Positions 3,782 to 43,609 of a DNA stretch of 64,000 bases are shown piece after piece (the first letter of the stretch is position 1; every line of letters starts with the position of its first letter). The stretch is from Escherichia coli (lineage in GTDB: Bacteria > Pseudomonadota > Gammaproteobacteria > Enterobacterales > Enterobacteriaceae), in assembly GCF_013122565.1 (NCBI RefSeq), contig NZ_CP053258.1. One strand, written 5' to 3'. The translations under genes were made by a program, and so were the position numbers. A model generated the notes under the pieces. It made no database searches. It saw only the letters and a list, made by a program, of their open reading frames with translations, and was not told where the DNA came from.

Positions 3782-4127
3782 TCTCTGCTCCTGTTGATAC
3801 GGAAAGGGAAACAGGCACACCGTTATTCCGCCGCCCGGTCAGCTCCACCACCATTGAACCGTCAAAATTGCTGTTGATGGTGATGGAATCCAGCGTCATC
3901 CTTGGCTCCCAGCGACTCAGCGCCACATACACTGCCGACATGACCTGCAGGTGTAATGCCGGATTTTGTGGCTGGTCTATCAGTGCCGACAGCAGGGAAC
4001 CATATTCCCGACGGGCAATGCGGCTACCCTGCGGCGTCAGCAAAATGTCCCGCACCGACTGGCGCAGATGGTCCGTGTCTGTAATAGTTTTTCCGTTGTT
4101 CTGACTCATGCCGATATACAGCGTCAT
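3768..4127 (-). CDS. Baseplate protein (P2 gpW-like)
   Basis: 119 aa; ...DILLTPQGSRIARREYGSLLSALIDQPQ... resembles gpW; ATGA overlap with V. Confidence 0.8.
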   Translation of the reverse strand: MTLYIGMSQNNGKTITDTDHLRQSVRDILLTPQGSRIARREYGSLLSALIDQPQNPALHLQVMSAVYVALSRWEPRMTLDSITINSNFDGSMVVELTGRRNNGVPVSLSVSTGAENGSD

Positions 4128-4702
4128 ACCGGGCCTCCGGTTGTATCGCCGCCTTTCAGGACGCCAGTATGCTGATGCGCATCAACCACGATCCCGTTAG
4201 AACTCATCGCTCCGCCGCCCTGGGTAACGCCACCATTGATCACAACTTCGCTGTTAATGCGCGTGCGGTCAGCCTCCAGTACAAACTCACTGGTTTTCAG
4301 GGTGATATTGTCAGCGGCCTCAATGACCATGGATTTGATGCCCCTGACATACCAGCGCCCGGTGGCGGGTTCGTATTCAAACCAGCCACCGTCTGGGTAC
4401 TCAACCACGTTGCCGTCCTCAGAGTCTGAAGGTGGTGGAAACTGATTTGAGTAGACAGCAGGCAGGGCAAACGCGGTTTCCAGATTGCCACCCAGGCTGA
4501 ACAGCACAACCTGCTCGCCCACAGACGGTTTCCACCAGGTGCGCGATTTGCCCGCGCGCAGTGTCAGCCAGTTAATCCAGTTGGTTTCGAGGTCGCCCGT
4601 TTTCACCCGACACAGCCAGTTTTCCCGGTCCACTTCGGTGACTACACCTGTGCGAATCAGATTGGTGATAAGGCGCATGATTTCGGTTAGTTGTGCATTC
4701 AT
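4124..4702 (-). CDS. Baseplate spike/assembly protein (P2 gpV-like)
   Basis: 192 aa; MNAQLTEIMRLITNLIRTGVV... aligns with P2 V N-terminus. Confidence 0.85.
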   Translation of the reverse strand: MNAQLTEIMRLITNLIRTGVVTEVDRENWLCRVKTGDLETNWINWLTLRAGKSRTWWKPSVGEQVVLFSLGGNLETAFALPAVYSNQFPPPSDSEDGNVVEYPDGGWFEYEPATGRWYVRGIKSMVIEAADNITLKTSEFVLEADRTRINSEVVINGGVTQGGGAMSSNGIVVDAHQHTGVLKGGDTTGGPV

Positions 4703-4750
4703 GTCGACGATATTTGCACAAACATATATTGTGGGACATTGAGTCAGAAA

Positions 4751-4768
4751 TGTATGACTTACTACACA
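4751..4768. promoter_or_regulatory. TGT-N12-ACA dyad (P2-type late promoter activator element) upstream of V
   Basis: tgtatgacttactacaca; P2 late promoters carry a TGT-N12-ACA dyad bound by Ogr-type activators. Confidence 0.3.
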
Positions 4769-4795
4769 ATGTTTATCCGCGCAAAGGAGTTACAG

Positions 4796-5701
4796 ATGAC
4801 ACAAATCGGTATCTATGGATATTGCTTCACGAAAGAATTTACTTTTAAAGGAGGGACACTGATACCTCGTTACAAATCCTTTAAGGAACTAAAAGAGAAT
4901 AAATGCGATGGAAGCGAATATGTATTAAGTGGATTTTTCTCTCCCGCACATGCTTCTGAAAACACCGTCACTCAAATAATTTATGATCTTTCAGCTGTTT
5001 TAAGTTTCATTGAACAAAAAAATGTAATCATATCAAACTTCCTAGAGGAACATGAAACACCTGAAAAGTTAGATAATAATTTCCCACTAAAATTGAAGTC
5101 AAAAAGAAAGTCATCACTAGGAATAATTGTTGAAGATTACTTCTCTGAAAAGAGTCGCTCAGCGTTCATTGAGCTTGCGATGGATAAACTTCATAGAAAT
5201 ATTAATTCTCATCAAAACCCTTTTAGAACTGCGTTCTATAAGTCTATATTTTCTTTTAGGGAAAGAATGGACTATGTAGATGTTAAATACTTCCTTAATT
5301 TCTCAGCATTAGAATCCCTGTGCAGATATATCGATAACGAGTCGACATCTAGTTATACACCACAAATAATTACAAAGGTTTTAAAAGATTATGGTTTTAA
5401 TGTATCTAAAGAAGGCAACCCTGTACCACAAAGAAACGTGATTCACTATTGCACGCTTCGAAACTCTCTATTCCACAATGGAAATTATATTGGATACATT
5501 AAGAAAGATGATCCAAGCAGTATCATTAAATTAAGTGATTATTATTCAAATCTAAATTTACTTTTACCTTTAGTATTAATGAAATATATAGGATTCGATG
5601 ATGGATTAATTAACTGGGACTCATGGATAGACTATGAACCATTTCTCGCCCTCAGGCCTAAAAACTTAACTCCATCGAATGGTAAACAATCAATTAGATA
5701 G
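4796..5701 (+). CDS. AT-rich cargo gene: hypothetical protein with Rx4H motif (HEPN-like, abortive-infection-like candidate)
   Basis: About 301 aa from MTQIGIYGYCF with AGGAG RBS upstream; low GC relative to flanks; antisense to the S-V tail operon; motif RNSLFH. Confidence 0.7.
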   Translation: MTQIGIYGYCFTKEFTFKGGTLIPRYKSFKELKENKCDGSEYVLSGFFSPAHASENTVTQIIYDLSAVLSFIEQKNVIISNFLEEHETPEKLDNNFPLKLKSKRKSSLGIIVEDYFSEKSRSAFIELAMDKLHRNINSHQNPFRTAFYKSIFSFRERMDYVDVKYFLNFSALESLCRYIDNESTSSYTPQIITKVLKDYGFNVSKEGNPVPQRNVIHYCTLRNSLFHNGNYIGYIKKDDPSSIIKLSDYYSNLNLLLPLVLMKYIGFDDGLINWDSWIDYEPFLALRPKNLTPSNGKQSIR

Positions 5702-6136
5702 CCAGCGCAATAATACATCGTGGGTTAAGGATTCTACGTCATCATTAATACCTAACAAACGACGCTCTGCGTAACGGACCTCCGGTCCTTTGCGACTAAC
5801 GCGATCACGCAGGCCGTAATGGTGAACACGGGCAATACGCTGCACCTTGCCTTCAAACTGTACGCTGGCAGAGTCGGCGCTGGCGGCAGTTTTCAGGTAT
5901 TTTGTGGTGCGCAGCTTTGCAAACATCTGACGTTTGATGCGCCCCTTCTTGCTACGTGCTGTTACCCTGCGCGGTTCATAACTGCTGCCATCTGGATTGC
6001 GCTGCATCCTGATATTCTGCTGCTGTGTCCGGCGCAGTTCCTGCGCCAGCTGGCGCATCATGCGGCTTCTCGTGGCTGGTTCCAGATTCGCCAGCAAGGC
6101 ACTCAGCCAGTCGTCCACCTTCTGCAGTTCAGCCAC
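5690..6136 (-). CDS. Tail completion protein (P2 gpS-like)
   Basis: 148 aa; synteny R-S-V. Confidence 0.85.
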   Translation of the reverse strand: MAELQKVDDWLSALLANLEPATRSRMMRQLAQELRRTQQQNIRMQRNPDGSSYEPRRVTARSKKGRIKRQMFAKLRTTKYLKTAASADSASVQFEGKVQRIARVHHYGLRDRVSRKGPEVRYAERRLLGINDDVESLTHDVLLRWLSN

Positions 6137-6581
6137 GTTTCACCGTCCACATTTCTTCAGGTGCATCAGGTTCCGCTACAGCTTCAACGCTCGACACACT
6201 GCCGTCAGTGCTGACCAGCACACGCTCCGTCAGTTGCAGGTTCAGGCTGATATCACAGACATCGTTGCGCAGAATATCCACCTCAAAGGTGAATAGCTTT
6301 TCCCGTAACGCCAGGTTATTGATAGCATCGGGCTGGTTATCCCTCAGCCACAGCAAAACCGGGGCCATCAGCAGATTCTGGTCGCCGCTGAAATCCTCAA
6401 TCACCACGTTCAGGGTGTAACGGTACTCCCATGACATGGAGCTGGCCCCCGTGGCAACCAGCGAACCGTTATCCACAAACAGATGCAGTTTGTCCGGGTT
6501 ATTGCGGACATAAGGCACCGCTTTATTGAGGGCGTGGCGCAGGGATTGTGGTTTGTTCACTGTTTCGCTCCTGACACGCAA
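6129..6581 (-). CDS. Tail completion protein (P2 gpR-like)
   Basis: 150 aa; synteny. Confidence 0.85.
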   Translation of the reverse strand: MRVRSETVNKPQSLRHALNKAVPYVRNNPDKLHLFVDNGSLVATGASSMSWEYRYTLNVVIEDFSGDQNLLMAPVLLWLRDNQPDAINNLALREKLFTFEVDILRNDVCDISLNLQLTERVLVSTDGSVSSVEAVAEPDAPEEMWTVKRG

Positions 6582-13030: not shown

Positions 13031-14064
13031 TGGGAAAGAGTAAGAAGAACCGAGCTGCGGCGACGAAACAGATCCAGCTTAAAAGTCAAACTACAGCCGA
13101 AGCATTCAGCTTCGGCGATCCCGTTCCTGTTCTGGACCGCCGAGAATTACTGGACTATGTGGAATGCGTACAGATGGACCGTTGGTATGAGCCGCCCGTC
13201 AGCTTTGACGGACTGGCGCGCACCTTCCGCGCTGCAGTGCATCACAGTTCCCCGATTGCAGTAAAGTGCAACATTCTGACCAGTACCTACATCCCTCACC
13301 CGCTGCTCAGCCAGCAGGCTTTTTCACGTTTTGTGCAGGACTATCTGGTATTTGGTAACGCCTACCTGGAGAAACGCACGAACCGATTCGGTGAAGTTAT
13401 CGCCCTTGAGCCTGTGCTGGCAAAATACACCCGACGCGGGTTAGACCTGGATACCTACTGGTTTGTGCAATACGGCATGACTACACAGCCGTATCAGTTC
13501 ACGAAAGGCAGCATTTTTCACCTGATGGAACCGGATATCAACCAAGAGATCTACGGCCTGCCCGGTTATCTTTCTGCCATTCCGTCAGCCCTGCTCAACG
13601 AGTCCGCCACGCTGTTCCGCCGCAAGTATTACATTAACGGCAGCCACGCAGGCTTCATCATGTACATGACCGACGCCGCGCAGAACCAGGAGGATGTAAA
13701 CAACCTCCGTAACGCGATGAAAAGCGCCAAAGGACCAGGCAACTTCCGTAACCTGTTTATGTACTCGCCGAACGGCAAAAAGGACGGGCTTCAGATCATC
13801 CCATTGTCTGAAGTCGCGGCAAAGGATGAGTTTCTGAATATCAAAAATGTTAGTCGCGATGACATGATGGCGGCACACCGCGTGCCGCCGCAAATGATGG
13901 GGATTATGCCTAATAATGTTGGGGGGTTTGGGGATGTGGAGAAAGCGAGTATGGTATTTGTGAGGAATGAATTAATTCCTCTACAAAGGCGTTTAGAAGA
14001 GCTTAATTTGTGGCTAGAAGAGGAAGCCATAAAATTCAAACCATACAATTTATCAGATAATTAG
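13027..14064 (+). CDS. Portal protein (P2 gpQ-like)
   Basis: 345 aa; ATGA overlap with P. Confidence 0.9.
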   Translation: MMGKSKKNRAAATKQIQLKSQTTAEAFSFGDPVPVLDRRELLDYVECVQMDRWYEPPVSFDGLARTFRAAVHHSSPIAVKCNILTSTYIPHPLLSQQAFSRFVQDYLVFGNAYLEKRTNRFGEVIALEPVLAKYTRRGLDLDTYWFVQYGMTTQPYQFTKGSIFHLMEPDINQEIYGLPGYLSAIPSALLNESATLFRRKYYINGSHAGFIMYMTDAAQNQEDVNNLRNAMKSAKGPGNFRNLFMYSPNGKKDGLQIIPLSEVAAKDEFLNIKNVSRDDMMAAHRVPPQMMGIMPNNVGGFGDVEKASMVFVRNELIPLQRRLEELNLWLEEEAIKFKPYNLSDN

Positions 14065-14070
14065 AATCAT

Positions 14071-14108
14071 GGCCCTAGTATATTATCATTTTCACTAGGG
14101 CTTTCTTT
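14071..14108. terminator. Hairpin between convergent portal and RT genes (bidirectional terminator candidate)
   Basis: ggccctagt ... actaggg stem followed by ctttctttc. Confidence 0.4.
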
Positions 14109-15869
14109 CTATATGCTGCATATTTTTTTATAATGTTCAAAAACATCTTTAAAAGTGTTGAGTATTATTTCAAAACCACTAAAATCAACTTTTCGTTTTT
14201 TATCCCTAACTACTTTCACAGAGAAAACATGTTTCCCATATTCAGTTTTTGAGTCCCCATCGTTCTTTTTGTTAAATTTTTTACCACCAAGAATAGTTGA
14301 TAATACATCATGAGTAAAAAGATCTTCCATCGCAGTCTGCTCACCAGTAGCACTTAAAGGCGTTAGAATGATATAGAGATTTTTAAAGACATGGATAAAT
14401 CTCATTTTTCTCATTTTATTGGTATCATCGGGGCAGCTCTTAACATTATTTTTAAGGAAATTCAAAATCTCATTAGAACCAGAATCGTTGTCCAATACCA
14501 TGATAACCGGGTGCTTAGGAATGCTTCCATAGTAGCTTGAATATTCATCCATATATCTTTCGATGAATTTTTTAAGATCTGCGCTACCTCCAGACATATT
14601 AATAAAATAACTTGACTTCTCATCAGATTTAAAAATATTCAAGTTGATATCATTTCCTTTACCGTCTGTGCTTTTCTTGAGCAACTCAGGAAATTTGGCA
14701 GAAAGTGAACGAATAGCTGATTTTAAATATACTCGATCAGTTTTGCCTTCTGTCAAGATTGTCGGGGAAGCATGTCCATGAAAAAACTTGTAGTAAATAA
14801 ATTTACTATATGCCTTCTCTCGTACATTCAGCTTTAACCTGTAGTTTTTTAATGTAATATGAATAGGCGCATATTTTTCAGGCTGTTTACTTATTTTATC
14901 TTGTATGTTATTAAATTTATCAATCTGGTCAATAAACCCAAATCTTCCCTCTAGTTTTTCGATACTCCCCACGACTAGCTTACCATCTTCATCAGGTAGC
15001 TTATATTCTCCCTTACTATAAAGTGAATGAGCTAATGCTCTTGTTTTATTCGAATATTTCCTATCAACGTTAACAAATCTATTTATAGTAAGTCCCGTAA
15101 CTTCTTGTCTCGTGGATTTGTACGAGATCCTTGTTTTAGCATCATTAATATCAAAACCAGCACGTTTTATTTCACTGACAAGAATGCTCCCCAAGACAAC
15201 CCCCTCAGGAAGAGATATTGCCAAATCGGTAGGAAATTCTTTTTTATTAGTTGAAAACGTGATGTCATCGGCATAACGACTATATGAACAACCTAAACTC
15301 TTTGCTAATTTAGCTAATCTAATATCCATAATGCTACAAATTAAGTTTGTTATCACTGGAGAACACGGGCTACCCTGAGGCAAACTTCCCTTATAGCATG
15401 CGGCTTTAGCTAAAGTAGTGGCGACAATCGGATTTAATAAGAAATCCCTATTGGATAGGAAGTACCCTCTCACTCGCCCAAAATTAAAGCTTTTGAAAAA
15501 ATCCTTAAGATCAATATTGAGTATTATATTTTTCCCACGATGTCTGAAAGCATTGGAAATTATTGACTTATTTCTTTCAAAACCAAAGGAGTAATTGTTT
15601 TTAATTTTTTTAATTTTGAAAGTTTCATCTCTACACTCCATTAAAAGATCGGCTATTCGTCTTTGGAGATCTTTCAAACTATCTTCTGGCGCAGAAATCA
15701 ATCTGACTCCCTTACCTTTTTTTGGAATAGAGAAATCTTTATACTGATTATCAGTACCAATTCTGTAAAGAATATTCGTTAAAAACACCAACTTAACATC
15801 TAGCAATTTTGCCAAGTCAGCACGAGATGCTGCGACTTTCAAAAGTAGTAATTTAGAAGTTGCGACCAT
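14109..15869 (-). CDS. ret: Retron reverse transcriptase with C-terminal TOPRIM domain (RT-TOPRIM fusion; consistent with retron-Ec67 / Retron-Eco2 RT)
   Basis: 586 aa; RT motifs [23 protein letters not shown] (res 199-202); TOPRIM-like TEGKTD (373-378) and VLDNDSG (458-464); strongly AT-rich. Confidence 0.9.
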
Positions 15870-15904
15870 AATTATATTTTATCGTAGAAGTTAGTAAGAG
15901 AGGA

Positions 15905-16040
15905 AGAACGCATGTAGGCACTCCTTCGCACAGCACAACGGCCCTATAGCGACGAAACAAGGATGTCAGGGATGCGATTCCACCTGCCATTAAAATCACT
16001 GGTTGTGATACACAACCAACAAATCTGCCTACATGCGCAT
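15905..16040 (-). ncRNA. msr-msd: Retron msr-msd-like non-coding RNA locus flanked by a1/a2 inverted repeats
   Basis: 12-bp inverted repeat cgcatgtaggca at 15909-15920 and 16026-16037 with about 105 bp between them; internal hairpin ggttgtg-tat-cacaacc; a2 lies 40 nt upstream of the RT start. Confidence 0.5.
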
Positions 16041-16108
16041 AAATGAAACTACCATTTCAACGTCTTCATTTCCAGTAATATATTTCAAATATCTACACTG
16101 AGCGCGCG

Positions 16109-16127
16109 CTCGTATCCCCGCCACGCC
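16109..16127 (-). other. Candidate cos cohesive-end site
   Basis: Minus-strand GGCGTGGCGGGGATACGAG; first 13 nt match the 186/P2 cohesive end as I recall it (GGCGTGGCGGGGA...). Confidence 0.4.
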
Positions 16128-16171
16128 TGCCCGCTTTATGTAGTGGTTTTCATGCAGGTGCATGATCTACG

Positions 16172-16196
16172 CAAAAGCCCGCCAGTTCTGGCGGGC
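16172..16196 (-). terminator. Rho-independent terminator ending the A/tum early transcript
   Basis: Stem gcccgccag/tggcgggc with T-tract on the minus strand. Confidence 0.55.
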
Positions 16197-16469
16197 CTTA
16201 GCAAAAACGATCCTCAAACGATCATGCAATCTCATGCAGCATAGACATGCACAGACGAGTAAAGCGAATCGGACCTTACGCAAGGTGAACTCCTCAGCGG
16301 GCATAATCAGTATGTCGGAAGATCTCTAAAAATAAATAATTCGGTTAACAGGTATGCTTACAAAAGCATATATTTGATTAAAAATCATGTAAGGGGGAGG
16401 ATCTCAAACTGAATCGCCACGGGTTTTACAAATTTCGATAGTCTCTCTAACGTTTCGGCTGAGGTCAAA

Positions 16470-16895
16470 ATGAAAAGCTTTTACGTATTAATTTTAATTC
16501 TGGTTGCAAGCTTTGTTAGCGTCCCAGTTCAGGCGGTAACAGCTAAAAACTATGAGAAAGGAACTAAAGCTCAACAGAAATCAATATCTTACCTTTCATG
16601 TGCATTCTATGGCAGTAGCACACAATTAGATCCTAGCTACACGGAGCAAGTACCTACAGCCGATATCAAGATATTACAGAAAGCAGCTTACCACGCTTAC
16701 AACGATGCGCTCTCATACTTTGGCTATGAGGAACCAGATCACGAACAACGCATAATTGATTATGCTGAATTTGTGGCGTCGCAAGAAGCTGTGTTATGGG
16801 ATAAGCCGGGAATGAATGGAAAGCAGGTAACACTAATTGCTCGTTCTCTCTACAATGAGAGTAACTGTAACTTGTTACTGGACTCAATTAAGTAG
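16470..16895 (+). CDS. AT-rich cargo gene: small secreted protein of unknown function
   Basis: 141 aa; signal peptide MKSFYVLILILVASFVSVPVQA; GAGG RBS; low GC. Confidence 0.7.
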   Translation: MKSFYVLILILVASFVSVPVQAVTAKNYEKGTKAQQKSISYLSCAFYGSSTQLDPSYTEQVPTADIKILQKAAYHAYNDALSYFGYEEPDHEQRIIDYAEFVASQEAVLWDKPGMNGKQVTLIARSLYNESNCNLLLDSIK

Positions 16896-17054
16896 GAAAA
16901 AGATGGTATTTTGCCCGTAGTTTCAACCTTAATCTCCGAACCTGTCGCAGAACGGGCGTTCACTCATCAAATAAACGCCACACCTAACGCCTCACTGTAC
17001 TCGTTGTTCAACCTTGCTGACGCCAGAACCAAGTTCAGACGCCAGCAACTTTTC

Positions 17055-17288
17055 TTAATGCAGCCAGCTGTCGTCTTCCCACACCTTCTGCATAATCTTC
17101 ATCACTTGTTTTCTTTCTTCGTCCAGTTGCAGTCCGGTCAGTTCCACACCGTTAGAGCTACCTTTGCGGATGCGAATTACCGTTTTGGGATACAGGGGGC
17201 GCAGATTGCGGTAAAGCTCGGATTCAAGGGCGTCCAGGGTAGACTGGCTAATCTTCTGCTCTTTATCGATCATTATTTCAATGCGCAT
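17055..17288 (-). CDS. DinI-family protein (Tum antirepressor C-terminal-domain-like)
   Basis: Start trimmed to MRIEIMIDKEQ... (GAGGTG RBS); pattern MRIE...LDALESEL...WEDDSW resembles DinI. Confidence 0.7.
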   Translation of the reverse strand: MRIEIMIDKEQKISQSTLDALESELYRNLRPLYPKTVIRIRKGSSNGVELTGLQLDEERKQVMKIMQKVWEDDSWLH

Positions 17289-17298
17289 AAAGGTCACC

Positions 17299-17487
17299 TC
17301 AGCTGATGACATCCATTGAGCGGTTGTATTCGTGGGTTCTGATTTTTGCCATGAGTTCATCAGTCAATTCAGAAACCCACTGCAGAGCCAGCCCCTTCTC
17401 TTCATCACTACACTCACTAGCCGCTACAAGCTTAAGAAAAAAATCAATGCGCTGGAGCTTCAAAGACTCCAAAAAATAGTCCTGCAT
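17299..17487 (-). CDS. Small protein upstream of DinI-like ORF (possible N-terminal part of a Tum-like antirepressor)
   Basis: 62 aa; directly downstream of a LexA box; separated from the DinI ORF by a frame change. Confidence 0.5.
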   Translation of the reverse strand: MQDYFLESLKLQRIDFFLKLVAASECSDEEKGLALQWVSELTDELMAKIRTHEYNRSMDVIS

Positions 17488-17639: not shown

Positions 17640-20054
17640 TTAATACAGGTTCCGCCACTTATCATCTTCCTGCAAACGCTGGTTCCGATAGAAGATACGC
17701 AGGCCTGCTCCTGACGGAATACTGCCGCCGCGAAGGAGTAAATCGACCTCTTTCTCGCTGCCATCAAATCCTCTGGACTTCAGTTCATAGACGAGCTGCT
17801 GTCGCTGATGGTCTGTAATTCGCTGTTTGTAGTCTTTACGCCGTTTCGGTTTCACCAGGCGTAACCTTGCAGCCAGTTCCCGGCGCTCTTTTTTGCTCAT
17901 ACTGTGCAGGTATTCGTGCAACTCCTTGTCATCCATGCGGGTAATGTCCGTTCTGGTATCCCCATCAGCTGATTTGTCTTTCCCTTGTTGGTTCAAATTT
18001 TCAGCAAGGGGACAGTTATTGCCACGAGTCCAAGGGGCGCAAGCGCCCTGGTCGGCTACCGCCTCCTGAACGTCAACGGCTTTACGAACCATTTTCCACT
18101 TCACTGCATGAGTGCAGATCTTGCCCTCTGCAATGGGTGACCAGATGCCATAAATACGAATGCCGTGATCGCCATAGGCGGTCGGCTCTTCGTTAATTTC
18201 ATAAGCAGTTCTGATGAGGTGATATTTGCGGGGAACCAGTACGCCGCCCTGCTTCATGATGTAAGTGGCAAAACAACCAGCATCAGCAGCAGCCAGGATT
18301 GCATCAAGGCGCGGGTTATCCAGTACCGGCGCACCTGCTTTTTTGTCCCCCTGTTGCCTTGCCGCCTGACCAGCCAACAATCGCAGTTCACGGTAAGCCT
18401 GACGCCCCGGAATGCCAAAGAAGCGGAATTGCTGAACACGATGCAAAGACGCCCAGGCATTCACGTATTCAGCGTTATCACGCAGAGATTTACCCGTTTC
18501 CTTGCTGATCTCGCCAGCCAGACCACGCCCGTCAATGTTCTTACTGATGTATTTCGCGATGTAGCTTGTTGGCGTACCTTTGCGCGGGTTTATCAGCTCA
18601 GACTTAAAGCGTGGTCCCGTGTTATTACCCAGCTCCTCGCGGTCTTCACGAATGGCAAACTTACGCAACAAAGCAGTAATGGCTCGGCGATCTTTTTTGC
18701 GCATAAAACACAACAGGTGCCAGTGCACTGTACCGTCATGATGCGGCTCAGCCACCCGCACGCCATACCAGCGCAATCCGGCTTTGTGCATCGCTTTACG
18801 AAATGCAGCAAACATGCCGACCAGATAATCACTGCTTTGTCTTACCGTCGCGTTTGTCCAGGTCGGGTTTGGTCTGCCGTTATTTAGCGTGGAATGGAAA
18901 CGTGACGGACAGGTGATGGTGTAGAAAACGGCGCAGTCACCGCGCATTTCCGCGATAAGCTCCAGACCTTTAACACAGGCCATCATCTCATTGCGGCGAT
19001 GCGCAGGGTTGCTGCTGCTGGCGTTTACCACGTCTTCCATATCCAGCGTGTCGCCGTCTTCGTTCACCAGTTCATGAGAACGAAAAAACTCCAGCGACTT
19101 ACGGCGCTGCTCACGTTTATGCATCACGGCTTCATAGCTGACATAGGGAGATGCTTTTTTGCTGACCAGGCAGACAGCGCGCAACTGCTCTTCCCGCCAT
19201 TCGCAACGCATCTTCCATAATTTCCGATACCACCAGTCGGCGCACAACATACGCGCCAGCGAACCCGGAATGAGTTCATAGGGCACGGGTTTACGGCGGT
19301 TTCTTTTCCGGCGGAGTTGCTCAAACGCAGGTGGGATGACATCCAGTCGCAGGGTTTCTGCTGCCACCCTTTCCCATGTCTTGCGGATTTCTTCTGGCTT
19401 AACGTCATCGGTGGCATACAAATCGCCACAAGCTGCATCAAGGCACATGCTCATATGCGCAGCTACCAGGGTGGACAGGCGTTTCACCTGATCCTGACTC
19501 ATTTCAGGCAGGATCAGCAGGCCGTCCAGCCCTTCCTGGCTCGCCATAAAGCGAAAAGCAGTGGATAGCTGACTGTCGCGTACATGCTCCAGCCGTTCCA
19601 GACATGGCTTAATCGTCTCACGCAAATAGCGGGAATAAGCCTTTGGCCTGCCCAGGCTGCTGAAGTATTCAATACGTTGCATCAGCGGCTTGCTGATATG
19701 GGAAGGCTGGGCGTTAACGTCCGCCAGAATGACCATGTCTGGATTAAAACGCTGCTGCTCATGCGCCAGCTTTGCCCGGCTAATGAGCTTATCCTGCTCT
19801 ATTTCGCGTTGGACAGGATCACGGGATTCATTAAAGAAATAACGCTCCCAGACCTGATCACTCAGAGCCTCGCGGCGCAGTTGTTCCTGCTCGTTATCGG
19901 CAGCGTACAGAGTGATCAGGTTTGAAAGCGCAGAAACCGGCGCAACTTCCGCCGGGTCCAGATAAGGGTTAATGGCCTTTTTCGGGCTGTTCCATGAGAA
20001 TGCTGCGGCGACCTCGTTAAAGCCGCTGCAGTTGTTCATATCATCATGGCTCAT
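17640..20054 (-). CDS. Replication initiation protein (P2 gpA-like rolling-circle nickase)
   Basis: 804 aa; position downstream of early genes; stop/start overlap with the methylase gene. Confidence 0.9.
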
Positions 20055-23054: not shown

Positions 23055-23651
23055 ATGTCAACATCAAAGTACCCAAGTGAGATCAAAATAAATCCCAATA
23101 AAGGTGGTAAGGCTGCGATTGAGCGATTAGTCGAAGCCTATGGCTTTACGACACGACAGGCTTTAGCTGATCACTTGGAAGTATCAAAAAGCACACTAGC
23201 GAACAGGTATTTGCGGGATACATTTCCTGCTGACTGGATAATCCAATGTGCTCTTGAAACAGGAACCTCCCTCAAATGGTTAACTACCGGACAAGGCCTT
23301 AAGCAAAGCTCGCTGACAGCAGCTACAGAAGAGCTTGTTAAGTTTCGCCTTGCCGCAGGCAAAATGATTGAAGACGGTTCATATGTCTTCGATTCATCAT
23401 TTCTTCCTGCAAACCTTTCATCACCAATTGTTATTCAGGATGGACTCGTCACATACATTTGTGATCAAAAATTTTCTGAAGTACTTGATGGAAACTGGTT
23501 AATCAATATCGACGGAACCTATTCCATTCGAAAAATCACAAGGCTTCCTAAAGGAATGATTAAAATTACAACAGCAGAGAATAGCTTTGAATGTGCATTT
23601 TCTGATATTGAAGTGGTTGCTTGTATAAGAAGTACAATAGTCTCGAATTAA
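23055..23651 (+). CDS. cI: CI-like immunity repressor (186 CI type)
   Basis: 198 aa; position between switch region and int; N-terminal HTH-like segment. Confidence 0.7.
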   Translation: MSTSKYPSEIKINPNKGGKAAIERLVEAYGFTTRQALADHLEVSKSTLANRYLRDTFPADWIIQCALETGTSLKWLTTGQGLKQSSLTAATEELVKFRLAAGKMIEDGSYVFDSSFLPANLSSPIVIQDGLVTYICDQKFSEVLDGNWLINIDGTYSIRKITRLPKGMIKITTAENSFECAFSDIEVVACIRSTIVSN

Positions 23652-23671: not shown

Positions 23672-25348
23672 ATGAATTCATTTGCCATCGTTATACTCTT
23701 ATTAGCATTTCTCGCCCCTGTTCTAGCTGTAATATTATTTAAACAAAGTAAAAAACACAAAGCGGCTATAGATAACCTGACAGCTAACAACATAGCCCTT
23801 TCTAACCAACTGATTGAAAATCAAGAAAAACTAGCACAGACCGTACGAGAATTATCAGATCTTGAAGGGCGAGCAGCACCATTGTGGCAATACGAAGAAT
23901 TGCACAGCGCAGTAATGGATGCAGAGAATAAGATAAAAAATGCGGACTCAATAGCCAAGCAAAAAATAGATGAAGCCCAAATTAAGGCGGCTAAAACAGT
24001 AAACGAAGCAAATTATCAAGCTCAGATAACAATAAGCAACGCTAATAGCGAAGCTATAGCAATCACCAAAGACGCTCGCGATGCACGCCTGAAAGCCAAA
24101 GAACGTCTTGATAATGCTAATAATAAAGCAAATGAGCTAATCTCAAATGCTAATGACAATGCAGTAAAAATTATTTCTGATGCAGAAGAAAGAGCAAAGG
24201 AGATTGCTGGTTCAGCATATGAAGCTAAAGAGTTTGCAGAAAAATATGAAGCAGTTGCAAAATCAATGAAAAATAAAATTGAAGGTTATGGTGATGAATG
24301 GATCATCCCTAACCGTAGTGTACTTGATGAGCTGGCAGAAAATTATGAATTTACAGATGCAGGCAAGGAATTACAAAAAGCCAGAGAGTTAACCAAATCA
24401 TTAATAAAAACTAATAAAGCTGCTTCGTGTGATTATGTTGAGCAAAACAGGCGTAATACTGCCATAAACTTTGTTTTGGATGCCTTCAATGGAAGAGTTG
24501 ACAGTATTTTATCAAAAGTCAAACACAACAATTTTGGAAAACTTTCCCAAGAAATAAAAGATGCATTTCAACTAGTAAATTACAATGGCTCTGCCTTTAG
24601 GTCCGCAAAAATAAGTGACATCTATCTTCAGGCAAGACTCAACGAGCTAAAATGGGGTGTAGCAGTTAATGAAATTATGCTCGAAGAAAAAGAAGAGCAA
24701 AGAAGGATTAAAGAACAGCTTCGTGAAGAGGAAAGAGCTCGTAGAGAATATGAAAAAGCGATAAAAGAAGCTGAAAAAGAAGAAAAAGCTATTCAGCAAG
24801 CTATAAATAAAGCAACGAAAGAACTTATGCTTGCAAATGAAGAACAACGCTTAGCTTTAGAGCAAAAAATAGCTGAACTACAGTTAAAATATGAAGAAGC
24901 TGAAGCTAAAAATCAACGAGCTATTTCTATGGCTCAACAAACCAGATCAGGCCACGTCTATATCATTAGTAATATTGGTTCATTTGGCGAAGATGTATAT
25001 AAAATTGGAATGACACGCCGCCTTGAACCACTTGATCGTGTTCGTGAACTCGGAGATGCTAGTGTTCCTTTTTCGTTCGATGTTCATGCGATGATTTATA
25101 GTGATGATGCACCATCATTAGAAAACCATCTGCATAAAGTTTTCAACGAAAAGCAGGTCAATAAAATTAACTCACGAAAAGAGTTTTTTAACGTAAATTT
25201 AAAAGAAATCAAATCAGTTATTGAAGACATGAACATCAACGCCCACTGGACAATGTTTGCAGAGGCGAAAGAATATAGAGAGTCTCTAGCTATTGAGCAG
25301 GAGCGCAAAGCAGCCACTTCCGCCAACGATGAACTACATGTTGCTTAG
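23672..25348 (+). CDS. AT-rich cargo gene: membrane-anchored coiled-coil protein with C-terminal T5orf172 (GIY-YIG-like) domain; DUF4041-type architecture; defense candidate
   Basis: 558 aa; N-terminal TM helix, long K/E/A-rich coiled coils, C-terminal GHVYIISNIGSFGEDVYKIGMTRRLEPLDRVRELGDASVPFSFDV; co-directional with cI and int. Confidence 0.85.
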   Translation: MNSFAIVILLLAFLAPVLAVILFKQSKKHKAAIDNLTANNIALSNQLIENQEKLAQTVRELSDLEGRAAPLWQYEELHSAVMDAENKIKNADSIAKQKIDEAQIKAAKTVNEANYQAQITISNANSEAIAITKDARDARLKAKERLDNANNKANELISNANDNAVKIISDAEERAKEIAGSAYEAKEFAEKYEAVAKSMKNKIEGYGDEWIIPNRSVLDELAENYEFTDAGKELQKARELTKSLIKTNKAASCDYVEQNRRNTAINFVLDAFNGRVDSILSKVKHNNFGKLSQEIKDAFQLVNYNGSAFRSAKISDIYLQARLNELKWGVAVNEIMLEEKEEQRRIKEQLREEERARREYEKAIKEAEKEEKAIQQAINKATKELMLANEEQRLALEQKIAELQLKYEEAEAKNQRAISMAQQTRSGHVYIISNIGSFGEDVYKIGMTRRLEPLDRVRELGDASVPFSFDVHAMIYSDDAPSLENHLHKVFNEKQVNKINSRKEFFNVNLKEIKSVIEDMNINAHWTMFAEAKEYRESLAIEQERKAATSANDELHVA

Positions 25349-25430: not shown

Positions 25431-26486
25431 ATGGCAGTACGAAAACTAACCACAGGGAAATGGCTTTGCGAATGTTACCCCGCCGGACGTAGCGGACGCC
25501 GTGTGCGTAAACAATTCGCCACCAAAGGCGAAGCACTGGCCTTCGAGCGATACACCATGGGGGAAATAGAAGCAAAGCCCTGGCTGGGCGAATCAGTGGA
25601 TCGTCGGACACTGAAAGATATGGTTGAGCTATGGTTCAAATTACATGGCAAATCTCTTACTGCCGGACAGCATGTCTACAACAAGCTGCTGTTGATGGTT
25701 GACGCCTTGGGAAATCCCCTTGCAACTGATCTCACCTCAAAAATGTTTGCTCACTATCGCGATAAACGCCTTACTGGTGAAATCTACTTCAGTGAAAAAT
25801 GGAAGAAAGGAGCAAGCCCAGTTACTGTTAACCTGGAGCAAAGCCATCTAAGCAGCGTTTTCAGAGAACTTTCCCGCCTGGGTGAATGGACACTTCCAAA
25901 CCCATTAGAGAAGATGCGCAAATTCACTATCGCAGAAAAGGAAATGGCATGGCTTACACATGAGCAGATTATCGAATTACTGTCTGACTGCAAACGTCAG
26001 AACCCAATTCTGGCACTGGTGGTAAAAATATGTCTAAGTACAGGCGCACGTTGGCGAGAAGCAATCAATCTTACCCGCTCACAGGTCACCAAGTACCGAA
26101 TCACCTTTGTGAGAACGAAGGGGAAGAAAAACAGAAGCATCCCTATCAGTAAAGAGCTTTATGAAGAGATCATGGCGCTCGATGGGTTCAATTTCTTCAC
26201 AGACTGCTATTTTCAATTTTTATCCGTGATGGAAAAAACGTCTATCGTTCTCCCTCGCGGTCAACTGACACACGTTCTGCGCCATACGTTTGCGGCGCAC
26301 TTCATGATGTCGGGTGGAAACATCTTGGCCTTACAAAAAATTCTCGGACACCACGATATAAAAATGACTATGCGTTATGCGCATCTGGCACCGGATCATT
26401 TGGAAACGGCGCTCCGTTTCAATCCACTGGCAACGTTACCAAATGGCGACAAAGTGGCGGCAGCGGTTGGCATTACCCCGCAATAA
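25431..26486 (+). CDS. int: Tyrosine site-specific integrase (P2/186-like)
   Basis: 351 aa; C-terminal catalytic region ...LRHTFAAHFMMSGGNILALQKILGHHDIKMTMRYAHL (R, H-x-x-R, Y). Confidence 0.9.
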   Translation: MAVRKLTTGKWLCECYPAGRSGRRVRKQFATKGEALAFERYTMGEIEAKPWLGESVDRRTLKDMVELWFKLHGKSLTAGQHVYNKLLLMVDALGNPLATDLTSKMFAHYRDKRLTGEIYFSEKWKKGASPVTVNLEQSHLSSVFRELSRLGEWTLPNPLEKMRKFTIAEKEMAWLTHEQIIELLSDCKRQNPILALVVKICLSTGARWREAINLTRSQVTKYRITFVRTKGKKNRSIPISKELYEEIMALDGFNFFTDCYFQFLSVMEKTSIVLPRGQLTHVLRHTFAAHFMMSGGNILALQKILGHHDIKMTMRYAHLAPDHLETALRFNPLATLPNGDKVAAAVGITPQ

Positions 26487-37835: not shown

Positions 37836-38019
37836 TTAATCTAAAGGCAGATCTAACAAGGATATTGTTCTTCGATCTGCCTCTACTACCCTTCCCGATG
37901 TCCTACCCTTACGCACAAAATCCCCTGACGCATAAATCGAGAAAAATGAATCGTACTCGAGGCAACTCTCACTTTTTCACACCAAATTAAAGTTTTGATC
38001 GCAATTACTTGAAATAAGC

Positions 38020-38045
38020 GTAATGGTTACTATAGTAAACATTAC
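38020..38045. promoter_or_regulatory. Imperfect palindrome overlapping a -10-like TATAGT upstream of the toxin-antitoxin pair (autoregulatory operator candidate)
   Basis: gtaatggttactatagtaaacattac. Confidence 0.4.
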
Positions 38046-38060
38046 CACAAGGATGGATGT

Positions 38061-38447
38061 ATGGGTGTGTATAAGGCAAGGCGATTCAGCCAAAGCACGA
38101 AAAAACTTGGTATTCACGATAAAGTTCTCATGGCTGCCGCTGAAGAAGTGATGCAAGGCATATGGGAGGCTGATTTAGGTAGCGGTGTCATCAAAAAACG
38201 GTTACCCCTCCAACAAGGAAAGAGTGGTGGAGCCAGAACAATTATCTTTTTTAAATCAGCAAATCATGTGTTTTTTTATGATGGTTGGTCCAAGAGTGGT
38301 CTAAGCAGTAAAGGAACCAAAGAAATCGAAGATGATGAACTGGCAGCCTACAAAAAAATGGCAAATGCATTTCTGGCCTTTAGCAATAAGCAAATAGAGG
38401 ATTTGATCGAAACTGGCTTCTTGATTGAGGTGAAAAATGAGCGATAA
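38061..38447 (+). CDS. Type II toxin, RelE/ParE superfamily (HigB-2-like), toxin-first arrangement
   Basis: 128 aa; ...GKSGGARTIIFFKSANHVFFYDGWSKS... pattern typical of this toxin family. Confidence 0.65.
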   Translation: MGVYKARRFSQSTKKLGIHDKVLMAAAEEVMQGIWEADLGSGVIKKRLPLQQGKSGGARTIIFFKSANHVFFYDGWSKSGLSSKGTKEIEDDELAAYKKMANAFLAFSNKQIEDLIETGFLIEVKNER

Positions 38448-38766
38448 ATTACAAATGATGCTGGAAGATGCAAAGGAACTGAATGCATTGGGCCTGATGT
38501 CTGATAGTGAGGTTGATGCCATTGCCGTCATGGTCAAAGCCCGTGAAGTCAGCGCCCGTATAGCCAAAGTCAAATCAATGACGGGTGAAGAGATCAAAGC
38601 CATCCGCACCCGATACGGCATGTCACAATCCGTGCTGGCACATACAATGGGAATGTCAAAAGAAAGTGTCTCGAAATGGGAACGTAATGAAATAAAACCG
38701 AGCGGCCCGGCACTACGTATTTTGAATACATTGGCAATAAAAGGGCCGGAAGTTTTTGCAAAGTAA
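38437..38766 (+). CDS. HTH (Xre/NadS-like) antitoxin
   Basis: 109 aa; C-terminal HTH ...YGMSQSVLAHTMGMSKESVSKWERNE...; 11-bp overlap with toxin gene. Confidence 0.65.
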   Translation: MSDKLQMMLEDAKELNALGLMSDSEVDAIAVMVKAREVSARIAKVKSMTGEEIKAIRTRYGMSQSVLAHTMGMSKESVSKWERNEIKPSGPALRILNTLAIKGPEVFAK

Positions 38767-38835
38767 AATGTTTGCAAATGATTTACCACATTCATTAGTA
38801 CCCCTTGATTCAGGGGTACTAACACTATTCTAATT

Positions 38836-40164
38836 CTACTGCCAGCTAATCTGCGCCCTGCCGTTTTTCTTACTCTTATACAGCCGCTCATCTGCCAGCA
38901 TTTTCAAGCGTTCGACGGTAGTACATTCATTTGAATGCGCTATACCGATACTGGTGCTTAAATTAATGCTTCCCACCTGGAAATGAACAATTTCTTTTAG
39001 AATCGATAGCAACTCTTCCAGCGTTCCACCCGTATAAATCACCGCAAATTCGTCACCGCCGAAGCGGTAGACTTTACCTTTATCTACGGGGATCTGTGAT
39101 TTAAGGATTTTCACCACTTTCATCAACACTTCATCGCCCAGCAAATGACCGAAGGTGTCGTTAATGTTTTTGAATTTATCGACGTCAAACAGGCACAAAT
39201 ATCCGCCTTTTTCCGGCAGGGCTTTTAAATCTTCGTCAAAGGATTTTCTGCCCATTGCTTTGGTCAGGTCGTCCAGGAACGCTGAGTTATACAGACTGTA
39301 GAGTTTTTTGACATCGGCAGCCGAAAAGAAAAGCCCGCCATCCAGTACACGTTCAAAATGGTTATTAATGATGGCTTCTTTCTCCACAATACCACGATTA
39401 ATCACTCTGCGTACCATATAGAGGCAACTGGTACCCGATATCACTGCCACCAATGCGGCAAAGAAAATAATCAATGTACAGACCCGCAAATAAACATCTT
39501 TTTTATACGCAAATACGTACAATCCTGTCGGCAAATAGGCGAAGTGCTCCATCGCTTCCGAAACGGTGAAGATGGCGTTTTTAGCATTATATTCATCACC
39601 GGTCACCGGTTTACCGTTCTTAAACAGAGAGAACATCAGGTTTTCGCTATCCATCGCCAGCGATTTTGACAGTAAAGAAAAACGCTCCAGACCAAGCAAA
39701 AATATCAGACTACGATTGTGAGTTACCGGATAGAGGTAATAGACGAAGGTTTTACCGTCAAAAGAGATAAACCCTGTATTTTTGACATGTCGATACTTCA
39801 CAACCTGCATAATATCTGCACAATAATTTTTCTCGAACTCCTTTACCTGAATACATTCGTCACTGGAAATCAGATAAGGACCGACATCGTACAAATAAGA
39901 GGGTGAAACCGAGTCGGCGTAAGCTGTGCGTAAGCCAACCAACAGCTGTTCCTCCGTGGGATTTAGCGTGTTGATAAGATCAATTGCCACGCTACGCCGA
40001 TATTCAGCAATATTTGCCACCGCAAAAGCAGTATCAATAACGGACTGTTTCAGGCTATACACCCGTTCCTTTACCATTTGAGTGTAGATCCCGCAGGCAA
40101 CTGCTGAAATCATGATAAAAATCAGCAGACTGACTGTAAGTACGAACTTATTGATTCTGGACAT
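38836..40164 (-). CDS. dgcI: Diguanylate cyclase DgcI (YliF)
   Basis: 442 aa; GGDEF motif in ...[12 protein letters not shown]... Confidence 0.9.
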
Positions 40165-40171
40165 ACGTAAA

Positions 40172-42520
40172 CTACTCTTTTACTAATTTTCCACTTTTAT
40201 CCCAGGCGGAGAATGGCATGGGTTTCTGGTACAGATACCCCTGAGCCTGAACACATCCTAATTTGATTAATTCGCGCGCAACGTCTTCGCTCTCTACGCC
40301 TTCCGCAATCACCGGGATCCGGTTATAGCGTGCCAGGTCGAAAATAATGCGCACAATTTTTCCCGCAGTACCGAAAATATCGCCGGTAAATTGCGAGTCC
40401 ACCTTTATGCTGTCTGGATTAATTTCATAAAAACGTTTCAGGTTTGACAAACCGGTGCCAAAGTCATCAATCGATATCCGTACCCCTTGTTTACGCAGTT
40501 GTTCAATATTGAGATAAAAATGTTCATTAATTCGCTCGATCACGGTTTCAGTGATCTCAACACAGAGGCTGTTCGCCTTCAGGCCATTTTCTTTCATGAT
40601 GGTGGTAAAACGCTCATGAAAGTGCGGTTCGTTTAACTGCCAGGGCGAAACATTAATATGCAGTAAGAAATCATCCTTCAGCGATGCACGCTGACTAAAA
40701 TGTCTGAATTCACCCATTGCCGTTTTAATAATCTGATAACCCAGCTCATTGATAAACCCGATATCTTCAGCAATGGTAATGAACTTCAGCGGTGAAATGA
40801 TCCCCCGCTCCGCAGACACCCAACGGCACAACGCCTCCGCGCCCAGAATGGCGCGGGTGTTAATATCAACGATCGGTTGATAGACGAGGAATAGTTCGCC
40901 AATTTCCATTGCATGGCGAATATTACGCGCAATCCAGATATTCTCTTCTATTTCGTTGAGTTTCGCGTCATCACAGAAAATAAACTCGGAGAACATATGG
41001 TCACGGATACTGGAAATCGCCAGTTTCAGTTTTTCTGCGTAACTCCAGGCGTTTTCCCCCTGCAAAGGTTCACAAATGGCAGACTTATGGATGCGCAGAT
41101 TGCGGTAGCCAAAGCTGCTGTCAAAATCGTTTACCATCGCTATTTTACGGGTAAATGTCTGTACATTTTCCCGACACAGAAGTAAATAGAGATCGGCATT
41201 GAATGTCACGATATCGCAGCATTGTGCATATTTCTCGGCAATTCGCTGACACAATTTCCTGACGATTTTATTACGTTCATCAACACCAAACACCGCTTCC
41301 ACGGCTTCCAGACCACACAGTTTGATGATCCCCACAGCCAGATACTGATTATTGTTGGACTCAATAATCGCCATATTTTTAATAAAACCACTTTCCTGAT
41401 CGTAAGAGATCAGTGAGAGCAATTTATTTGACCGTTCAATTTCGGCATCTTTCATTTCCGCGATCGAATTTTTGATGCTGATAATCTCTTTCGCATCGCC
41501 TTCGCGAATTTTCAGAGCCTCGATCTGATCCGTTGAGTCAGGCAAAAACGCCAGCGTATTAACCAGCTCTGTCATTTCAGAAAATTGCCGACGGAACACA
41601 CGAGTGGTCATTAAATAAACCACCAGCAATACGATAATAATGAACGCAAACGGCAGATAAAAAAGTTTATCTGAGGCGTTCAATAAATTACCACCCGGAT
41701 AATAAAAATAGATTTCGAATAATGCGTTGTTTGGCACCGCTGATGTTTTTTCGATATATTTAGTATCGACAGAATCAATAATATTATAATTACCTTCGCT
41801 ATTATAAATAATCAGTTTTTCACGAGCGAGTTGATTCTTGGCAATGATCTCATGGCCTTGTTTCAAAAATAGAACTTCATCATTAGCGCTGATTTGATCA
41901 AGATACTCGTTCAGATATCGCCAGTTTAAATCGACATGAATTTTATCCACCGCTAACAAATCGTGATCTTTGCCGTTGATGCGTAGCGTAAAAGAGATAC
42001 ATTTTTTACCCGGACGATCAAAGCAATTGTAGGCCGGATTCCAGCTGTTGTTAGAGTCATCTGAAGCCACCGACCACGGTCGTTTCGATGGGTTAAAATC
42101 GGCAAAAATAACCCGCCCTGACTCGTCGACAAGCGGTCCATTTACTTGTTCCTGATGATAAACAACGATTTTATCGTTCGCCCTCCGCGAAAAGAGATAA
42201 TATTTATTATCATCAAGTACCAGTCCCACCGAGTCTAAAAATGGCATCATTTCCATTTTCAGGATCACAGCGCGTTGAATCTCCTCTGTATTTTTTAATA
42301 AATACAGTGAGTCCTTTAATGTCAGGGCCGAACGTTCAATATCTTTAAAGAAATAGCCAACGTTTTTCTGAATAAGTTCAAAGCGGCTATCGGCACGTTT
42401 TACCGCGCGTTCCGATACCAGTTGATAGTTAATGATGAAAAAAAGGCCAATAAATGACAGTGCTGCCAATAAAAATAAAATTATCAGCCTTATCTTTATC
42501 TTTTCGTATAAACTCAGCAT
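40172..42520 (-). CDS. pdeI: c-di-GMP phosphodiesterase PdeI (YliE), EAL domain
   Basis: Trimmed to [18 protein letters not shown]... (782 aa); EAL motif present. Confidence 0.9.
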
Positions 42521-42697
42521 GTTAATACATTTAACAAAATAACTGTCTGAACGCTGTGCCGCTGCAAAAACAGTCCCTTGCTGCGGCTTTTTAACCAAAT
42601 TACCCGATTCTACAAAATCAGCAGAAAGTTACAACACTTGCTTAGGGCAATAATTTCCTGTGAGGTGATTACTCTTTCAAGCAATATTCAAACGTAA

Positions 42698-43609
42698 CTA
42701 TCCTTTAATTTTCGGATCCAGCGCATCGCGTAAACCATCGCCCAACAAATTGAACGCCAGTACAGTCAGAAAAATAGCCAGGGCCGGAAAAACAGCGACA
42801 TGCGGCGCGATAACCATATCCGCTCGAGCCTCATTGAGCATTGCTCCCCACTCTGGTGTCGGCGGCTGCGCACCGAGGCCGAGAAATGACAGGCTGGCGG
42901 CAGAGATAATCGAGGTACCAATCCGCATGGTGAAAAACACCACGATAGAAGAGACGGTCCCAGGCAGGATATGACGCAACAAAATGGTCATATCGCTGGC
43001 ACCAATACTGCGTGCTGACTCAATAAAGGTTTGCTGTTTCAACACCAGCGTGTTGCCGCGCACCAGGCGGGCAAACGCGGGGATGGAAAAAATGGCGACT
43101 GCAATAATCACGTTAGCAATGCCGCTTCCCAACACCGCAACAACAGCGATCGCCAGTAAAATACCCGGGAAGGCAAACAGCACATCGCAAATGCGCATGA
43201 TCAGCCGATCCCACCAGCCTTCATAATATCCAGCCAGCAAACCCAGCAACGTCCCTATCGCCGCACCGATAAACACGGCAAACACGCCCGCCGCCAGCGA
43301 GATTTGCGCACCAACCAGGACACGGCTGAAAATGTCACGCCCCAGTGAATCGACGCCAAACCAGTGCTGCAAAGAAGGTCCGTTATTCAGATTGTCATAA
43401 TCAAAATAATTTTCGGCGTCATAGGGAGCGATCCAGCGTGCAAAAATGGCCACCACAATCAATAAAATAACGAATAATGCGGCGGTCATCGCCATATGCT
43501 GACGGCGAAATCGTCGCCAGAATTCATGCCACGGTGTACGTACCTGGTCAGGTTTGACCAGTGGCATGGCGTTTAACACCGCCTGACGTCGCCAGTTAAA
43601 TAGTCGCAT
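42698..43609 (-). CDS. gsiD: Glutathione ABC transporter permease GsiD
   Basis: 303 aa permease; synteny gsiABCD. Confidence 0.9.

Follow-up and report, generated by a model that had tools for sequence, protein, structure and literature searches.

The 64,000-nucleotide (nt) stretch of Escherichia coli DNA analyzed here (contig NZ_CP053258.1, assembly GCF_013122565.1), referred to at its full length as the window, starts within a P2-like prophage that has its late genes on the minus strand. This report concerns an accessory gene of that prophage, its product (the window protein, 301 amino acids [aa]), which contains the HEPN-type motif RNSLFH, and the slot that the gene occupies. The neighboring genes V and S are both on the minus strand (Table 1), and the gene therefore lies antisense between them. 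The longest frame of this open reading frame (ORF) runs from 4691 to 5701 (+) and gives 336 aa from a TTG codon, but a start at 4691 was dropped because the N termini of the homologues coincide with the ATG at 4796. Since AAGGAG precedes this ATG and the first residue is the same in every homologue, the gene is taken to begin there. Guanine-plus-cytosine (GC) content is 0.31 to 0.33 over positions 4801 to 5700 (about 32%) versus 0.53 to 0.60 in both flanks (about 56%), and the last 12 nt of the gene (5690 to 5701) overlap the 3′ end of the convergent gene S. Thus, the low GC content, separate strand, ribosome-binding site, approximate length of 301 aa, and overlap with the S stop codon that an earlier note had read from the sequence all hold.

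The ORF is a genuine gene and not a chance reading frame. Its product is matched over its full length by phrog_4373 (E = 1.5e-111), a family annotated as being of unknown function, and 44 close homologues were found in a collection of 5.8 billion proteins. A profile built from 31 homologues retrieved 190 representatives from 1.84 billion proteins (clusters at 50% identity, E ≤ 1e-3), nearly all of them 260 to 320 aa long and with one common architecture. A scan of the island for a partner or antitoxin gene found no other conserved ORF of at least 20 aa, and such a partner was dropped from consideration, as the island holds only the one ORF.

Table 1. Features of the S-V slot and of the gene that it carries (window coordinates)
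Feature	Coordinates	Strand	Basis
Cargo coding sequence, 301 aa (span includes stop codon)	4796..5701	+	ORF list; PHROG match; homologue starts
Shine-Dalgarno sequence AAGGAG, 5 nt upstream of ATG	4785..4790	+	Direct sequence reading
N-terminal alpha/beta domain (about residues 1-110), candidate sensor/regulatory domain	4796..5125	+	
C-terminal helical HEPN-like domain (about residues 120-285)	5153..5650	+	
Helix motif (Y/F)Lx-F-S-(G/A)-L-E-x-L-x-R, residues 166-177, candidate HEPN helix H1	5291..5326	+	Column counts
RNSLFH, Rx4H catalytic-type HEPN motif, residues 222-227 (R222...H227)	5459..5476	+	Sequence
TGT-N12-ACA dyad, Ogr-type activator site of V operon late promoter	4751..4768	-	Conserved position; P2 annotation
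Low-GC cargo island	4703..5732	.	blastn against Klebsiella phage KP12 and Salmonella phage RE-2010; GC profile
gpV baseplate assembly/spike protein, gene 1 of V operon	4124..4702	-	PHROGs baseplate assembly protein, E = 2.5e-30; homologous record annotation
gpS tail completion protein, final gene of O operon	5690..6136	-	PHROGs tail completion protein, E = 2.5e-49
gpR tail terminator	6129..6581	-	PHROGs, E = 4.2e-59

In the P2 record, S closes the O operon, after which a terminator is annotated, and V opens its own operon from an activator-dependent promoter, so that the gene studied here lies between two late operons and not within one. The antisense position between S and V reported in the earlier note is correct, but the site is the boundary of the O and V late operons (the orf30 position of P2) instead of the interior of a single operon. 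The dyad that constitutes the Ogr-type activator site is equidistant from the V start in the window, KP12, ST437-OXA245phi4.1, and RE-2010, its core is invariant in a slot alignment that includes an ApeA-bearing locus, and the activator site of P2 is annotated at the equivalent position. DNA homology with relatives in which the slot is empty breaks off at the V start codon (4702) and picks up again at about 5733, within the 3′ end of S, which places the insert at the operon boundary, just past the activator site. In KP12 and in most of the Klebsiella relatives, nothing is inserted and the slot measures 68 nt. The insert is thus variable low-GC cargo of the S|V (orf30) accessory hotspot of P2-like phages.

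About 14 terminal codons of S (5690 to 5732, minus strand) fall where DNA homology with the empty-slot phages is lost, and the boundary of cargo exchange therefore lies inside the S coding sequence. The C terminus of S is still similar despite the divergence of the DNA (HDVLLRWLSN in the window and RDMILQWLAG in KP12), and it seems that every cargo comes with its own variant of the S 3′ end. P2 itself has a nonessential antisense gene, orf30, between S and V. Its product (NP_046770) resembles that of the window gene in being low-GC accessory cargo of the same orientation in the same slot, with the O operon ending on one side of it and the V activator site on the other, but it has 261 aa and no sequence similarity to the window protein (BLASTP E = 4.5). 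Kinship between the two was also considered and dropped, P2 not having been retrieved by tblastn of the phage collection; they are different cargo of one hotspot.

The contents of the slot were surveyed in IMG/VR at 80 loci that encode a V protein with 92% or higher identity to that of the window; S and V could both be placed in 78. Of these 78 relatives, 53 have an empty slot (a gap of 50 to 100 nt) and 25 an occupied one, with inserts of 556 to 2235 nt that represent at least 13 cargo types with GC contents of 31 to 37%. Nearly all occupied slots (22/25) carry their insert antisense to the late genes, and three of the 25 hold a member of the window family. Cargo recognized by PADLOC includes the PARIS proteins AriA/AriB, SIR2/ThsA/LmuA-like proteins, PDC-S15, and an NsnA/PD-T4-2-like protein. 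To these can be added ApeA, a single-gene HEPN defense (Gao et al. 2020) represented by Ec1ApeA to Ec4ApeA (Juozapaitis et al. 2026, bioRxiv 10.64898/2026.01.26.701840; also Drobysheva et al. 2026, bioRxiv 10.64898/2026.03.20.713152). The cloned flank of Ec3ApeA, given in the supplement of the ApeA preprint, starts with the V start in reverse complement and also includes the dyad described above, and in the P2-like prophage of E. coli EC416, an Ec3ApeA-type gene lies between V and S in the same orientation as the window gene; canonical ApeA therefore uses the same slot. The proposal in the earlier note that the gene is a horizontally acquired moron, possibly of a defense type, is strengthened by the presence of PARIS, SIR2-like, other defense-type, and ApeA cargo at this site. 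A 2026 preprint describes a P2 defense hotspot in the late genes, “downstream of GpL,” that holds 16% of P2 systems; this is compatible with the S-V slot, although the identity of the two positions is not confirmed.

Several other occupants of the slot deserve mention in their own right. The EC416 copy of the ApeA-type gene (NZ_AP027404, 3812032 to 3813785) is split into two ORFs of 196 and 372 aa; its single-frame translation stops after about 190 residues, and an intact 583-aa version exists elsewhere, which suggests that the EC416 copy is frameshifted and possibly inactivated. Two slot proteins (IMG/VR loci L066, 2955 to 4498, and L067, 3274 to 4498) have HEPN-type motifs: one of 449 aa, with RNIIIH preceded by LFQSFESI and with no PADLOC or Pfam match, and one of 386 aa, with RDKIAH close to its C terminus and no PADLOC match. 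Judging from these motifs, they may be further ApeA-like or HEPN solo proteins. Cargo proteins of 145, 231, and 268 aa (from L052, L068, and L041) contain long hydrophobic stretches and have the appearance of multipass membrane proteins; the 268-aa protein, which has no PADLOC match, is the commonest cargo sampled (7 of the 25 occupied slots).

The distribution of the window gene is that of an accessory gene. It is present in only 7 of 5426 complete E. coli genomes, at 99.5 to 99.8% DNA identity and with the ORF intact in all seven. This rarity, together with the empty slot of most close relatives, shows that it is not a conserved component of the tail module, a possibility that the earlier note had raised against its own proposal. 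Homologues occupy the same slot in ST437-OXA245phi4.1 (57% identity), in RE-2010 (35%), and in Pantoea, and a 55%-identical homologue is found there in very many Salmonella prophages, being intact in thousands of assemblies and indexed in 6117 blocks of the assembly collection. Other homologues reside in a Klebsiella element with a resolvase and an integrase and at a bare Acinetobacter chromosomal site. On a Halomonas metagenome contig (L093, 5693 to 7858), a 41%-identical homologue adjoins, divergently, a gene for a 319-aa tyrosine integrase (Phage_int_SAM_4 plus Phage_integrase), and beyond the homologue follows a series of small unrelated genes (cupin, acetyltransferases, and domains of unknown function); the locus looks like the first cassette of an integron array. 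No conserved neighbor of the gene was found in any of these settings, namely, the P2 slots, the integrase/resolvase element, the integron-like array, and the bare chromosomal site. The gene is foreign, accessory, and solitary.

The window protein carries RNSLFH, which, as the earlier note had seen, fits the Rx4-6H motif of HEPN RNases. The corresponding R[NHD]xxxH is kept in the scanned region of 122 of the 125 full-length members of the family; in the three exceptions, the motif is displaced by an insertion (RNKLVH), lies in a sequence that looks frameshifted, or is degenerate. In an alignment of 88 sequences that are 21 to 65% identical to the window protein, H227 is invariant (88/88) and R222 (87/88), N223 (82/88), E173 (87/88), and R177 (82/88) are nearly so, with F226, W274, and W277 also conserved in at least 90% of the sequences. 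Conservation of R/N/H and of E173/R177 over such a range of identity indicates purifying selection on a putative site of the catalytic type. An alternative is that the HEPN-like domain is catalytically inert and serves as a nonenzymatic binding or structural factor or that the gene is decaying and has become nonfunctional cargo. Some HEPN domains are indeed noncatalytic, and one distant family member (P0180) has no motif. However, the same five residues persist at 21 to 65% identity and the ORF is intact both in the seven E. coli genomes and, as the 55%-identical homologue, in thousands of Salmonella assemblies, so that we regard inertness or decay as very improbable.

An AlphaFold (AF2) monomer model from 31 sequences, with a predicted local distance difference test score of 87.6 and a predicted template modeling score of 0.86, consists of an alpha/beta domain followed by helices at residues 120 to 132, 142 to 155, 161 to 180, 188 to 198, 215 to 228, and 250 to 264, with a beta hairpin between helix 215-228 and the last long helix. 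RNSLFH is predicted to lie at the C-terminal end of helix 215-228. The modeled C-terminal domain has an all-alpha, four-helix up-down core with the Rx4-6H motif on the third core helix and a polar residue after the arginine, as in HEPN proteins, and its predicted fold is HEPN-like. The earlier note had allowed for a confident assignment to some other fold, and the model points instead to HEPN proteins. A Foldseek search of AFDB50 returned close homologues that bear the UniProt name “Apea-like HEPN domain-containing protein” at template modeling (TM) scores of 0.84 to 0.93 (the 57%- and 35%-identical ones) and, at E values of 1e-5 to 1e-3, proteins of 400 to 500 aa named for an ApeA N-terminal or YopA central domain. 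Against the PDB, Foldseek gave nothing significant for the window model, the top weak matches being Csm6 and a HEPN protein, and a sequence-profile search gave one irrelevant weak match (2p1a); the closest solved structures are HepT-type toxins. Among the 88 members scanned with Pfam, HEPN_Apea (PF18739) was the most frequent match but a weak one (3/88 at E ≤ 0.1, best 8.1e-3, none at E ≤ 0.001). A PF26308 (YopA_M) flag on one homologue was set aside after it proved to be a “faint” precomputed match.

The earlier note had likened the protein to AbiD/AbiF-type abortive-infection proteins. Abi_2/AbiD/AbiF proteins share with it the HEPN superfamily, the Rx4-6H motif, and the logic of single-gene abortive infection. 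Membership was nevertheless rejected: PF07751 (Abi_2) matches neither the window protein, the 31 homologues, nor any of the 88 members, PADLOC gives no Abi match, and the nearest kin are ApeA-like HEPN proteins.

ApeA is thus the natural standard of comparison. It is reported to be standalone and ligand activated, and it cleaves tRNA anticodon loops and also cuts single-stranded RNA phage genomes. Published structures place its active site on helix H3 and describe a protein of about 560 to 600 aa with a helical N-terminal domain, a Mid domain, and a split HEPN_ApeA domain, with the ligand pocket between the N-terminal and HEPN domains; the PDB neighbors of these structures are HepT-type toxins. 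Full-length ApeA sequences were obtained via the E. coli EC416 locus and a database search, the supplement giving the first 400 residues of each. ApeA and the window protein are both encoded by stand-alone genes without a partner, both have a C-terminal HEPN domain with Y-x-x-R-N-x-x-x-H-x-G on H3, and both have an aromatic-x-(A/G)-L-E sequence on the preceding conserved helix (F-S-(G/A)-L-E in the window family and W-I-A-L-E in ApeA). For both, HepT-type toxins are the nearest solved structures. The window protein has only 301 aa, however, and in place of the helical N-terminal domain of ApeA, whose roughly 200 residues make up half of the ligand pocket, it has an alpha/beta domain of about 110 residues.

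A second prophage protein offers a parallel of a more general kind. HepS, an abortive-infection protein of the Gifsy-1 prophage (Sargen et al., Nature 2026, PMC13043305), senses tail-tip proteins and then cuts anticodon loops. Like the window protein, it is a lone, prophage-encoded HEPN protein in an accessory-gene position with a canonical Rx4-6H motif, and by analogy, its logic would be expected of the window protein as well: constitutive presence, inactivity until a phage cue, and then anticodon-loop cleavage. HepS differs in being another, smaller HEPN protein (motif R100-H105) from a lambdoid siphovirus prophage, and it is likened to the window protein here by analogy only. Its trigger, a siphovirus tail-tip protein, cannot be transferred to the window protein by that analogy.

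HEPN RNases are also common as toxins (Anantharaman 2013), and with HepT-type toxins of toxin-antitoxin pairs as the nearest solved structures, the gene could be a selfish toxin or addiction module, or it could serve lysogenic conversion; its RNase would then act on host RNA in stress, growth arrest, or persistence without any antiphage role. HepT and other minimal HEPN toxins (PDB 5YEP, 7AE2/7AE8, 8XDJ, and 1JOG) are, however, single-domain proteins of about 130 to 150 aa that are always paired with an AMPylating MNT antitoxin, whereas the window protein has an extra N-terminal domain and insertions. A HEPN-MNT toxin-antitoxin system was rejected, since no nucleotidyltransferase gene is adjacent in the island and the protein has two domains. 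More generally, the island contains no antitoxin-like partner and the gene has no conserved neighbor in any context examined; its extra 110-residue domain fits built-in regulation better, and ApeA and HepS, the tested examples of solo HEPN proteins with a sensor domain, are defense proteins. We therefore consider a toxin without antiphage function decidedly unlikely.

Tested solo HEPN proteins with an extra domain (ApeA and HepS) are defense RNases, and by analogy we propose the same role here. In this reading, the gene is cargo (a moron) acquired horizontally at the S|V hotspot, between two operons of a P2-like prophage, and the window protein is probably a stand-alone, ApeA-like HEPN RNase in prophage-encoded defense; we hold this reading with moderate confidence. 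It also draws on the HEPN-like fold, the conserved motif, the defense cargo of the slot, and the retron RT-Toprim and PD-Lambda-1 genes in two further hotspots of this prophage. The lysogen would produce the protein in an inactive state. Pairing of HEPN domains, in a dimer or a larger assembly, would bring two RNxxxH motifs together into a composite RNase site, and a cue from an infecting phage, sensed by the N-terminal domain or a pocket between the domains, would switch the enzyme on. The RNA cut would most plausibly be tRNA anticodon loops or phage RNA, with the result that translation stops and the infection is aborted or halted. From ApeA and HepS we infer the RNase activity, the dimerization, the trigger, the target, and the defense phenotype alike.

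Several results weigh against this proposal. About one-third of the cargo types in the slot have no recognizable function, so that location in the hotspot is suggestive only. Pfam gives no significant match for the window protein, the 31 homologues, or the 88 members, and NCBIfam and PADLOC give none for the window protein; indeed, PADLOC assigns it no family at E ≤ 1, while its ApeA model, PDLC02157, finds the Ec3ApeA-type protein at an E value of 4.6e-12. Alignment of the 88-sequence profile with a 48-sequence ApeA alignment by hhalign produced short, weak local matches (E = 0.016 to 0.11, probability ≤ 3%). Finally, the search for a sigma-70 promoter and a terminator of the gene turned up nothing convincing, and neither scans nor RNA folds at the junction of S and the cargo gene exceeded shuffled expectation.

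Other searches bear on the relation to ApeA more specifically. HMMER profile searches of the 1.84 billion and 5.8 billion proteins never link the window family to ApeA, and a second database search with the 88-sequence profile found no new relatives. The weak hhalign matches place the H1 and H3 motifs in register (with NLWIALE(T/S)L as the H1 sequence of ApeA), and hhalign against a single ApeA sequence and against the 449-aa HEPN-looking slot protein gave nonsignificant local matches only. PADLOC applied to 10 distant members yielded one weak Cas13-ApeA match (E = 0.016). Membership in canonical ApeA is thus not demonstrable, and given the half length, the lack of a PADLOC ApeA match, and the nonsignificant hhalign results, we file the window protein as an ApeA-like HEPN protein with a distinct, compact architecture.

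The arrangement of the locus also bears on expression. The start codon of the cargo gene lies about 28 nt past the activator dyad, and any rightward promoter must therefore overlap the V promoter region; one rightward −10 candidate, TATGAC (4753 to 4758, inside the dyad), has a poor −35 element and is only a guess. S and the cargo gene converge, and no terminator was found between them, a layout which suggests that the cargo gene could be silenced when the resident prophage transcribes its late genes. A more specific version of the defense proposal would be a “mini-ApeA,” a minimal and hitherto unrecognized solo HEPN immune protein in which an alpha/beta domain of about 110 residues stands in for the sensor of about 300 residues in ApeA, with a different trigger and a placement that is possibly regulatory. 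Once the resident prophage itself turned to late expression, the toxin would be shut off by the bound activator together with antisense read-through from the O operon, and the prophage would thereby escape its own abortive infection. We regard this specific version as unlikely.

The same arrangement can be read in another way, with the protein serving the lytic or lysogenic program of the phage itself as an RNase that degrades host or competitor RNA at induction, as a superinfection or host-takeover factor, or as a counterdefense factor. The gene adjoins the V late promoter and shares an intergenic region with the Ogr-type site, phages do carry HEPN proteins, and no defense hidden Markov model (HMM) matches the window protein. 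However, the gene is oriented against the late genes and lacks a late-promoter dyad of its own, most close relatives do without it and are presumably viable, and it is interchangeable in the slot with bona fide defense systems. Its homologues also occur outside phages, in the integron-like array and at the bare chromosomal site. A function in the phage's own program is thus quite improbable.

The prophage carries further cargo. A 586-aa retron-type reverse transcriptase fused to a Toprim domain (14109 to 15869, minus strand; PADLOC RT-Toprim_I-C, E = 1e-212) lies in a low-GC island at about 14000 to 17000, between the portal/terminase end and gpA (17640 to 20054), a position which corresponds to the classical old/tin hotspot of P2-like phages. 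Two ORFs beside it may belong to the retron as accessory or effector genes, or they may be cargo in their own right: one of 141 aa (16470 to 16895, plus strand) matches phrog_7437, which is labeled as being of unknown function, over its full length, and one of 131 aa (16911 to 17306, plus strand) has no PHROG or PADLOC match. A 558-aa protein that matches PD-Lambda-1 (23672 to 25348, plus strand; PADLOC E = 3e-120) is encoded between a CI-type repressor gene (23055 to 23651) and the integrase gene (25431 to 26486). With the gene in the S-V slot, the prophage thus has candidate defense cargo in three separate hotspots. Well outside the prophage, at 38000 to 43000, there is a second dip in GC content (0.40 to 0.44, compared with about 0.50 to 0.55 around it).

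The window gene is a good candidate for a minimal solo HEPN defense, although not for a categorically new kind of system. PADLOC HMMs miss its family, even though members occur in P2-like prophages of E. coli, Klebsiella, and Pantoea and are very common in those of Salmonella. Should the gene prove not to be a defense gene, the locus would still illustrate a clean, cassette-like exchange of cargo at a precise boundary beside a late-promoter activator site. If it is an active defense, the protein would be among the smallest sensor-plus-HEPN immune proteins known and would lend itself to work on how a solo HEPN RNase stays inactive until it is triggered, and the S|V (orf30) slot would join the practical list of sites at which new systems can be mined.

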